DNA of 64,000 nucleotides, from the NCBI GenBank assembly GCA_963693055.1, contig OY843751.1, positions 2,752,001-2,816,000 on the forward strand, in the 5' to 3' direction. The translations under genes and the position numbers were made by a program. The first letter of the stretch is position 1. The number at the start of each line of letters is the position of its first letter. Below the pieces are notes generated by a model. It searched no databases and had not been told where the DNA came from. It saw only the letters and a program-made list of their open reading frames with translations. Shown here in pieces: positions 29,377-48,023 of this stretch. The DNA comes from a bacterium. Lineage in GTDB: Bacteria > Zhuqueibacterota > Zhuqueibacteria > Residuimicrobiales > Krinioviventaceae.

Positions 29377-29451
29377 CGGGGCGTAGCGCAGTCCGGTTAG
29401 CGCGCCTGCTTCGGGAGTAGGAGGTCGGAAGTTCGAATCTTCTCGCCCCGA
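29377..29451 (+). tRNA. tRNA-Pro(CGG), CCA not encoded
   Basis: CGGGGCG/CGCCCCG acceptor stem, anticodon loop TTCGGGA, T-loop TTCGAAT. Confidence 0.96.
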
Positions 29452-29455
29452 CTTT

Positions 29456-33545: not shown

Positions 33546-33598
33546 CGCGCCTGGTTCGGGAGTAGGAGGTCGGAAGTTCGAATCTTCTCGCCCCGACT
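33546..33598 (+). repeat. att-like direct copy of the tRNA-Pro 3' part
   Basis: 52 of 53 nt identical to 29401-29453. Confidence 0.95.
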
Positions 33599-33600
33599 GT

Positions 33601-33644
33601 AAAACAAGAGGTTAGCTAAATGTTTAGCTGACCTCTTGTTTTTT
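33601..33644. terminator. Terminator hairpin after the att copy, convergent with the integrase
   Basis: AAAACAAGAGGTTAGCTAAA/TTTAGCTGACCTCTTGTTTT. Confidence 0.8.
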
Positions 33645-45291: not shown

Positions 45292-46445
45292 ATATCCCAT
45301 CGTATTGAGTAGGTCGTTAATGGAAAACGTTAGACGAACTCGATCTTTCAAAAATGTCAAAGAGCGGGGGAGTTGTCAGTAATCGGTAATCAGTTTTCAG
45401 AACCGCCAAGAGTCCCTATTGTATTCCATGTTTTTGTAGAGCTGACAGCTATAAGCTGATAGCTAACAGCTTGAAGCCAATCCCATCGTATTGATTAGGT
45501 CGTTAATGGCAAATGTGAAACGTTAGACGAACTCAATCTTGCAAAAATGTCAAAGAGCGGGGGAGTTGTCAGTAATTGGTAATCAGTTTTCAGAACCGCC
45601 AAGGACCCTATTGTATTCCATGTTTTTGTAGAGCTGACAGCTATAAGCTGATAGCTAACAGCTTGAAGCCAATCCCATCGTATTAATTAGGTCGTTAATG
45701 GCAAATGTGAAATGTCAGACGTCAGACGATCTGTACCTTTTATCTAAATCCCGAACTTTTCATAAAGCTATCAGTTCTCAACTATCAATTGTCAGTTTTT
45801 TCGTTTCACTTTTGACGTTTCACGTCTCACTTGAAGAATGATGTCCGTTGTGTAGCGATGAATCCTCTAAATACTGACGACTGATCACTGATGACTTGGC
45901 AGCCAATCCCATCGTATTGATTAGGTCTATTTACAGTCGCATTTGACCTGGTGTGCAGATCTCTCTCTCGTTCAGCGTCTCAATCCCATCGTATTGATTA
46001 GGTCGTTAATGGCAAACGTGAAACGTTAGACGAACTCGATCTTGCAAAAATGTCAAAGAGCGGGGGAGTTGTCAGTAATCGGTAATCAGTTTTCAGAACC
46101 GCCAAGAGGCCCTATTGTATTCCATGTTTTTGTAGAGCTGACAGCTATAAGCTGATAGCTAACAGCTTGAAGCCAATCCCATCTTGGTTAATAGGTCTTT
46201 TTCAATATATCTGGTCGCTGGGCTGGTCATTGGGCTGGGCTATGGGCTGTCTCAATCCCATCGTATTGATTAGGTCGTTAATGACAAACGAGAAACGTTA
46301 GACGAACTCGATCTTGCAAAAATGTCAAAGAGCGGGGGAGTTGTCAGTAATCGGTAATCAGTTTTCAGAACCGCCAAGAGGCCCTATTGTATTCCATGTT
46401 TTTGTAGAGCTGACAGCTATAAGCTGATAGCTAACAGCTTGAAGC
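45292..46445 (-). mobile_element. Five cassettes inside CRISPR repeats: 45292-45477, 45478-45669, 45670-45903 (divergent), 45981-46173, 46253-46445
   Basis: Four near-identical 186-193 bp units plus one 234-bp variant, each starting with a variant repeat CAATCCCATCGTATTGATTAGGTC and ending (A/C)AGC directly before CAATCCCATC. Confidence 0.8.
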
Positions 46446-47026
46446 CAATCCCATCTTGGTTAATAGGTCTTTTTCAATGTTCAAAATATTTTTATTTCGA
46501 ATTATCTTTGTGGCTACTTCGTCTCAATCCCATCTTGGTTAATAGGTCTTTTTCAATGTTCAAAATATTTTTATTTCGAATTATCTTTGTGGCTACTTCG
46601 TCTCAATCCCATCTTGGTTAATAGGTCTTTTTCAATATTTTCAAAATTGCCAGCTGGGGTGATGCTAATGGTTATGTCTCAATCCCATCTTGGTTAATAG
46701 GTCTTTTTCAATAAAAATATTGGCATGGGCACTGAAAAAAAACACGTCCAGTCTCAATCCCATCTTGGTTAATAGGTCTTTTTCAATTCTGATACTGCAA
46801 AATGGCAGGTTTTACGTGTAGATACTTCGTCTCAATCCCATCTTGGTTAATAGGTCTTTTTCAATACGTTGAACAGCAGCAAGTCGAATTATTAAAAGAA
46901 ATATTAAAGTCTCAATCCCATCTTGGTTAATAGGTCTTTTTCAATAAATTTAGAAAATGCAAATTTAAGAAATGCAAATTTAGAAAATGGTCTCAATCCC
47001 ATCTTGGTTAATAGGTCTTTTTCAAT
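45904..47026 (-). CRISPR. CRISPR array with 37-bp repeat ATTGAAAAAGACCTATTAACCAAGATGGGATTGAGAC; 7 intact repeats, 9 spacers of 38-44 nt, no cas genes in the window
   Basis: Intact repeats at 46521, 46600, 46676, 46751, 46829, 46909 and 46990; split repeats at 46446, 46174 and 45904; the ATTGAGAC 3' end and AT-rich leader on the right indicate minus orientation. Confidence 0.95.
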
Positions 47027-47956: not shown

Positions 47957-48023
47957 TTTGGGAGCAGGAGGTCGGAAGCTGAAAGACCGCCTATTGGCTG
48001 TTTCGAATCTTCTCGCCCCGACT
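47957..48023 (+). repeat. Displaced tRNA-Pro 3' half with a 23-nt T-arm insertion (outer att)
   Basis: TTTGGGAGCAGGAGGTCGGAAG [CTGAAAGACCGCCTATTGGCTGT] TTCGAATCTTCTCGCCCCGACT. Confidence 0.9.

Follow-up and report, generated by a model that had tools for sequence, protein, structure and literature searches.

The closest described counterparts of the elements reported here are the intervening sequences (IVS) of 23S rRNA, some of which carry an open reading frame for an S23p, or four-helix-bundle, protein (PF05635, TIGR02436), as in Coxiella burnetii, and whose removal at the RNA level by RNase III has been shown (both points from the available text of PMC4990558). A second point of comparison is type III spacer acquisition by Cas1-Cas2 or RT-Cas1, in which DNA is inserted at a repeat and the repeat is duplicated (PMC8860593 and PMC11014452, in the parts available), with hairpin DNA being preferred in type III-A adaptation according to the former. 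In the catalogue of Altae-Tran et al. 2023 (PMC10910872), a '23S rRNA IVP' is associated with CRISPR adaptation modules and sometimes with a reverse transcriptase (RT); unlike the present work, the available text of that catalogue gives gene neighbourhood only, with no arms, repeat insertion or gene-less copies. Short heptamer tandem repeats occur in bacterial intergenic DNA, and an excess of heptamers is reported in PMC4692102. In the literature that we found, the spread of rRNA IVS, four-helix-bundle genes and heptamer repeats is left without explanation. Among other mobile DNA, MITEs and casposons combine fold-back ends with a target duplication, and integron cassettes stack in tandem at one site.

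Here we describe units that lie inside the repeats of a type III CRISPR array. In our reading, to which we give a probability of roughly 0.6, they are gene-less and likely decayed hairpin elements, with arms of 7-base repeats that elsewhere enclose a four-helix-bundle gene; Cas6 would excise them from the array transcript, and repeat-to-repeat recombination likely copies them along and between arrays. The literature consulted, largely open-access, holds no description of such repeat inserts, the nearest being the label that PMC10910872, in its available text, gives to the protein beside adaptation modules. What is added here is a junction rule, several lineages of element, and the finding of no long duplication at the non-repeat sites tested.

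An orphan array with inserts in its repeats

The window, a 64,000-nucleotide stretch of a genome assembled as one contig, carries on its minus strand, between 45294 and 47026, a CRISPR array with 15 repeat cores. The normal part of the array leads (46479-47026, with a weak match to Rfam CRISPR-DR8 below its gathering score) and consists of seven full copies of a 37-nt repeat of type A, ATTGAAAAAGACCTATTAACCAAGATGGGATTGAGAC, with seven spacers of 38-44 nt. The 3' end of the repeat, ATTGAGAC, is typical of type III repeats. The array is an orphan, and no cas gene is found among the 21 neighbouring proteins scanned. Spacers 6 and 7 are identical, and none of the spacers has a target in its own genome. 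Two spacers are themselves repetitive, the first (46946-46989) with a tandem unit of 15 bases and spacer 8 (46207-46248) with a short period.

Downstream of the full repeats the layout changes, all on the minus strand, to a left partial repeat, a unit called alpha, a right partial repeat and a spacer, twice over. In the first instance, bases 1-33 of an A-type repeat (46446-46478), with the predicted Cas6 hairpin kept and the 8-nt tag broken, are followed by the 169-bp interior of alpha-1 (46277-46445), made of heptamer-repeat arms and with an ORF of at most 12 codons from its ATG, then by bases 10-37 of a repeat with a B-type loop that is carried with the element (46249-46276) and by the unique, 42-nt spacer 8. 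The second instance repeats this order, with bases 1-33 of type A (46174-46206), the 169-bp interior of alpha-2 (46005-46173; two substitutions relative to alpha-1), bases 10-37 with the B-type loop (45977-46004) and the unique, 40-nt spacer 9 (45937-45976). The last part of the array opens with bases 1-33 of a B-type repeat (45904-45936), the repeat type of a mini-array at a second locus described below, behind which three units stand head to tail. These are beta, with a 210-bp composite interior holding two pairs of heptamer arms (45694-45903), alpha-3 (interior of 168 bp, 45502-45669) and alpha-4 (interior of 162 bp, 45316-45477, one 7-base unit having been lost), with shared partial repeats of bases 10-33 between them (45670-45693 and 45478-45501). 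The stack closes on a terminal partial repeat of bases 10-31 (45294-45315), so that its last junction ends at base 31. Counted with their repeat parts, the five units measure 193, 193, 234, 192 and 186 bp in array order. Canonical spacers span about 36-47 nt between two complete repeats; the inserts span 162-210 bp between partial ones.

Much of this had been noticed in a preliminary description, which reported non-coding units of about 190 bp at CRISPR repeats with coordinates and lengths that agree with our re-analysis, and which rightly took them to be non-autonomous; no gene is found in any of the window's units. Its four near-identical units and one odd unit with the same ends are borne out only for the four: alignment of the alpha interiors shows 2-6 substitutions and 0-8 gap columns between them, and beta has in common with them 3 bases on the left and about 28 interior bases on the right, and nothing else. 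A 10-bp core of the repeat had been proposed as an att-like site, a view that we set aside, since the flanking duplication is 22-28 bp (24 bp, bases 10-33, for B repeats) and the genes found in related units encode four-helix-bundle proteins, not recombinases. The 10-bp core is the longest stretch common to A and B repeats, which are identical at 19 of 24 positions overall. Nor is a full 37-nt repeat regenerated, as had been thought: the regenerated part covers 28 of 37 bases (positions 10-37), and of the nine bases that precede it, 1-2 agree with the start of a true repeat.

It is very improbable that the layout is an assembly artefact or a one-off local duplication without wider meaning. Alpha was probably multiplied locally in this array, and the duplicated spacers 6 and 7 would suit such an account, but the alpha copies differ from one another and contigs back both the junctions and the depth. 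Contigs from three runs of one sample span both junctions of beta together with both flanking spacers, and in run X1 the contig depth of the collapsed alpha is 27.8, against 6.1-11.4 for single-copy pieces (three- to four-fold). The order of the copies rests on the single assembly, the full stretch being spanned by none of the contigs listed. The local account also leaves aside that the same layout, with unrelated elements, is found in other genomes.

The same layout in other arrays

Units with 7-base-repeat arms stand at the same repeat position in 13 of the 20 arrays of this repeat family examined in GTDB genomes and metagenomes, 34 units in all with inserts of 80-560 bp, and these elements are unrelated in sequence to those of the window. 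Their junctions follow a rule. The right repeat copy begins at base 8-10 in 26 of the 34, a figure to be read with the fact that two search patterns demanded bases from position 10 on and a non-A at position 9, thereby favouring that break; G051, G050 and G142, which were found without this bias, show the base-10 break as well, with the exception of one G050 family (240 bp), in which the right copy starts at 14-22. The left copy spans bases 1 to 31-37, ending at 31-34 in 24 units and exactly at 37 in ten. Left out before the 34 were counted were missed repeats, an IS, N gaps and false anchors (three in G004, four in G123 and one each in L055 and L110); one L110 unit, whose anchor was misplaced, enters the count through its left end alone, and the count lacks its second copy. 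A plain repeat pattern was met in eight other genomes among 167 searched, with an element beside the repeat in four (G012, where full repeats lie beside the element, G051, G130 and G135), no element in three, and one that could not be judged. Metagenome loci (n = 123) were mostly chance matches, and were kept only if they had at least two repeat-like cores. Viral contigs searched with two repeat patterns gave no match.

The arrays differ in how the units are placed. Of the roughly 56 repeats of L055, four are the site of a unit, and one of these units contains an intact PF05635 gene. Both G050 and G142 mirror the window, with a normal array that leads into a gene-containing stack of units. A pair of units is present in G142 both in the middle of the array and at its end, with 20 unique spacers between. 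These distributions bear on the earlier suggestion that the units had inserted independently: the two dispersed alphas of the window can be explained by duplication of a block followed by spacer loss, and G051 shows a duplication intermediate that still includes the spacer, but in relatives (L055, L110 and G142) units of the same type do occur at repeats that lie far apart and have no duplicated spacers with them. In G004 and G142, RT and cas1 genes stand next to arrays of this repeat family; G004, with RT, cas1 and more than 70 repeats, nevertheless has no element, and the RT next to the array of G051 is truncated. At that G051 locus (L018:13218-13601), the CRISPR-type RT ends after 127 codons at the first repeat of the array, like a deletion that joins gene to repeat. 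In the element stacks of two genomes, partial repeats also enclose stretches of about 1.85 kb that hold unrelated genes (L051:437-2300 in G135 and L214:3733-5578 in G050).

Gene-bearing relatives

Longer, gene-carrying versions of the units, which the preliminary description had proposed should be sought in relatives, do exist, and they carry four-helix-bundle genes. They include L055 (510 bp), G050 (588 bp), G141, G142 and others, and three proteins from such units score as PF05635 and TIGR02436, the 23S-rRNA intervening-sequence protein. All ten genes seen in repeat-flanked units are read in the direction of the array. In a FastTree phylogeny of 33 sequences, which omits two partial proteins, the proteins from CRISPR-borne units occupy four separate positions, with 18-49% identity between lineages. 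Since alpha points to a fifth lineage by the composition of its arms (see below), these sequence comparisons suggest that elements of this kind probably entered repeats several times.

Most relatives of these genes live elsewhere. Repeat pieces flank 6 of 30 related gene loci, the other 24 lying at ordinary intergenic sites, and in a further set of loci all 14 are without a clear repeat piece. One cassette of a CRISPR-linked lineage (L217:8140-8790 in G128) lies between an RT gene and cas1 at a junction that is empty in G004, and a comparison of the empty and filled junctions reveals about four shared bases. At seven paired heptamer elements outside the CRISPR loci of the window's own genome, no flanking direct repeat longer than 7 nt was found (0/7). 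The long duplication is thus specific to repeats.

Two further placements were seen. In G107 and G008 (L204 and L208), four-helix-bundle cassettes break what appears to be a single protein-coding gene at the same codon, with the left arm in frame. In eight genomes of several families (L189-L195 and L199), a four-helix-bundle cassette lies directly before the same ABC-ATPase gene, which suggests long vertical retention.

Arms, folding and decay

The window's units are built of imperfect 7-base tandem repeats, a family that is dispersed in the intergenic DNA of the genome and that also flanks the genome's own four-helix-bundle gene at 4,596,739. We take the arms to be akin to the STRR-type short tandem repeats of bacterial intergenic DNA, which they resemble in being imperfect heptamer repeats dispersed through a genome, and from which they differ in belonging to discrete units that have defined junctions and lie in CRISPR repeats. 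When 7-mer content is compared, alpha comes closest to flanks from the clade of the genome's own gene, which supply the first six of the 44 loci (best cosine 0.17; best shuffle 0.12); beta and gamma, the latter a unit of the second locus, show the same trend, not clearly above shuffles (0.12 vs 0.13 and 0.10). As a control, six other units were placed in this way, and five were assigned to their own clades, partly through a match to their own locus. By this measure, the arms of alpha are of the kind that flanks four-helix-bundle genes. Free turnover of the arms was considered, and was abandoned after the clade matches of alpha.

Intact relatives pair at their termini over 14-17 of 20 bases in five units, with a fold z of -5.0. 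The window's units, by comparison, fold like shuffles (z of -0.38 and +0.69), and their terminal pairing, at 9 of 20 bases, is at chance level. They are therefore likely to be decayed units in which the gene has been lost, the fold has sunk to chance and the terminal pairing is gone. A relic GxxExxY gene start in alpha was entertained as well, and nothing connects it with the genome's five PF13366 matches. When the unit was searched against its genome, as the preliminary description had advised, it matched at CRISPR repeats only; at the DNA level, 60 related genomes gave only short arm or repeat matches to alpha. Host sites matched by the arms at a level of at least 80% number 2, 16 and 11, and shuffles have none.

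The units resemble the IVS of 23S rRNA. Both are small selfish inserts in a processed RNA with a decaying gene, and in relatives of the units a protein of this family is encoded between complementary arms. Removal at the RNA level by a host enzyme, which is RNase III in the case of rRNA, is predicted for the units with Cas6 in that role. In contrast to the IVS, all copies of the units lie in CRISPR repeats and none in an rRNA helix, they are multi-copy and stacked with a target duplication of 22-28 bp, and those of the window lack the PF05635 gene and probably most of the stem.

Genomic surroundings and a second locus

The array lies in a variable island that begins at a tRNA-Pro gene (29377-29452, plus strand) and ends at an interrupted 3' copy of it (47958-48022, plus strand). 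The island has a tyrosine integrase (PF00589; 33687-34454, minus strand), for which we have no evidence of action on repeats, and it is absent in this form from a genome of the same genus (G001), where nothing matches the array. The 3' tRNA-Pro copy at 47958-48022 contains a short insert with a small palindrome inside the T arm, and a third partial copy is found near 33,546-33,602 of the window.

A second locus, 230 kb from the window's array, holds one further, related unit (gamma, 218 bp) and the left half of an alpha. It is a 30-kb element (G000:C1, about 2,552,100-2,582,550) bounded by a 45-bp tRNA-Met duplication, and it carries an integrase, unannotated phage-like genes, cas6, cas10, csm2-4 and a CARF gene, but no cas1 or cas2; it is likely a type III-A system borne by a mobile element. 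Of its two arrays, one with 20 repeats is free of inserts and the other, a mini-array of six repeats, contains gamma. The half alpha precedes cas6. Its effector set could serve the orphan array of the window. At L001:16986-17773 the reading frame of a RhuM-family gene stays open into a lone B repeat; behind this repeat come the left half of alpha and, after it, the sequence that precedes cas6. The final spacer of the mini-array (L001:19376-19406) is matched over 31 bases by a contig that has long unrelated sequence on both sides and is present in three runs of the sample, possibly a protospacer in a co-occurring element. Elsewhere in the genome, the single cas1 belongs to a type I-B system with another repeat (28 repeats evenly spaced at 64-71 bp), and the single reverse transcriptase has no CRISPR link, leaving the element-bearing arrays without a cognate Cas1 or CRISPR-type RT.

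With alpha in two islands 230 kb apart, it may be asked whether a site-specific recombinase is at work, cutting the unit out as a circle and putting it back at the 10-bp core of further repeats. We regard this as quite unlikely. The tandem junctions are indeed those that circles would give, as had been pointed out earlier, and the scattered copies of L055, L110 and G142, which have no duplicated spacers with them, would fit as well, but unequal exchange accounts for the junctions equally, homologous exchange yielding identical products. By gene content, no unit seen carries a recombinase, let alone one cognate to a short core of the kind that serves att sites or integron cassettes, and the integrases nearby sit in tRNA-bounded elements (the 45-bp tRNA-Met duplication and the tRNA-Pro pieces). 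The flanks share 22-28 bp, and the shared segment varies between repeat variants. Neither an empty site nor a circle joint appears among the contigs listed, which drop rare variants.

The half alpha just before the cas6 promoter region also invites the thought that the units are a domesticated part of the CRISPR locus, an internal promoter, leader or regulatory RNA kept for its benefit. Units do recur in many arrays, and a TTGACA box is present in alpha and gamma. Promoter-like sites are at chance, however (nine found, 8.9 expected), there is no sequence conservation between the families, the window's units are unstructured, and no Rfam family is found for the units at E <0.2, the repeat excepted. 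Units are, moreover, absent from 7 of the 20 arrays, and domestication seems to us more doubtful still than the circle model.

Entry, processing and spread

As for how such an element first came into a repeat, our proposal of decayed hairpin elements would have a whole fold-back element joined into the repeat, roughly bases 10-37 of which would be duplicated through a staggered cut. Several routes could give this outcome. The leading one, although short of an even chance, is slipped integration, in which the array's own Cas1-Cas2, as a rule the neighbour of an RT here, would cut correctly at the 3' end of the repeat and nine bases short on the leader side. We favour it because base pairing in intact elements extends to the outermost bases and because ten left copies finish precisely where the repeat does. 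RNA-primed reverse transcription is a less probable route, slippage at a hairpin would come behind it, and an unknown transposase is the least probable of the four.

Compared with ordinary acquisition, the insertion at a repeat, the duplication of repeat sequence and the one end that coincides with the exact repeat end in ten units are all familiar. Cas1 normally duplicates the whole repeat. Here, only part of it is duplicated, the inserts are 80-560 bp rather than 36-47, and they are host-genome elements that recur at many repeats. Since the genome has no cognate Cas1 or CRISPR-type RT, entry would predate the loss of such a module or lie in another host. Against entry by Cas1 it must also be said that most related genes stand at ordinary intergenic sites, where Cas1 is an unlikely mover.

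The units share with MITEs, casposons and integron cassettes their non-autonomy, with the first two the fold-back ends and duplication, and with the last the stacking. They differ in that neither transposase, casposase nor integron integrase was found with any unit, and that the gene-bearing versions encode four-helix-bundle proteins only, the genome's one cas1 being that of type I-B. As regards MITEs and casposons, the duplication is confined to CRISPR repeats, with the paired heptamer elements and the RT-cas1 site behaving otherwise, as noted above.

Alternatively, the units may be retro-elements: an RNA released by Cas6 and ending in the repeat hairpin would be copied into another repeat, in target-primed fashion, by a CRISPR-linked RT together with an Avd-like four-helix-bundle protein. 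This is unlikely, if the least so of the competing accounts of the units. A fixed 3' junction with a variable 5' junction is the pattern of target-primed insertion, and it is the pattern seen here. The exact stop of ten of 34 left copies at base 37, on the other hand, marks a boundary that is relevant to Cas1 and not obviously to an RT. The co-orientation of all ten genes with the array agrees with a retro-element, but transcription by itself would also lead to it, and only four lineages contribute to the count. The gene of the same lineage between RT and cas1 in G128 and the label '23S rRNA IVP + DUF2325 + RT sometimes' (PMC10910872, available text) speak for an RT partner; this genome, however, has no CRISPR-type RT, and G004 has the RT but no element. 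Avd homology is discussed in PMC10053308 (available text), and Avd models do match the proteins weakly, below cut-off. The linked RTs score best as group II intron-like, and by these two scores the elements are unlike a diversity-generating retroelement.

Whatever the route of entry, a decayed hairpin element inside a repeat may be tolerated. The predicted repeat hairpin is kept on both flanks of the unit and the 8-nt tag on the right flank, so that the neighbouring spacers would still be processed; the earlier expectation that the array stays processable agrees with this prediction, as the downstream spacer retains both hairpin and tag. Predicted hairpin probabilities are 0.13-0.99 for partial repeats and 0-0.97 for full ones. 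As predicted from the repeat type, Cas6 would cut the unit out of the array transcript, and erosion of the left tag would keep the arms, with their matches at as many as 16 sites in the host, from being loaded as self-targeting guides.

Spread along the array would follow from the element travelling with its right partial repeat, a process that fits the B-type loop standing behind A-type left copies in the window. The direct repeats of 22-28 bp around the unit match every other repeat, and recombination can therefore copy it. Decay would then proceed through loss of the gene, the formation of composite arms and a pile-up at the old end of the array; gene loss, composite arms and units stacked at the old end are the pattern observed.

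Implications for CRISPR arrays and their inserts

The CRISPR repeat is a known empty site, and the junctions of these elements can for that reason be read to the base. A fixed partial duplication is the footprint of an inserting enzyme, which makes the question of movement a testable one. If Cas1-Cas2 is responsible, it can integrate structured DNA many times the length of a spacer, with consequences for CRISPR recording tools and for our view of how arrays decay. In practical terms, array finders will truncate such arrays or miscount their spacers.

Tentatively, and with the odds against it, a broader view may be offered in which IVS-type four-helix-bundle elements parasitise both CRISPR adaptation and CRISPR processing. 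An RT-linked Cas1-Cas2 would be the integrase for hairpins of 80-560 bp, with a fixed partial repeat duplication, Cas6 would be the splicing enzyme, and arrays would be a second safe haven beside 23S rRNA. If this is true, CRISPR arrays are a place to catch these elements moving.
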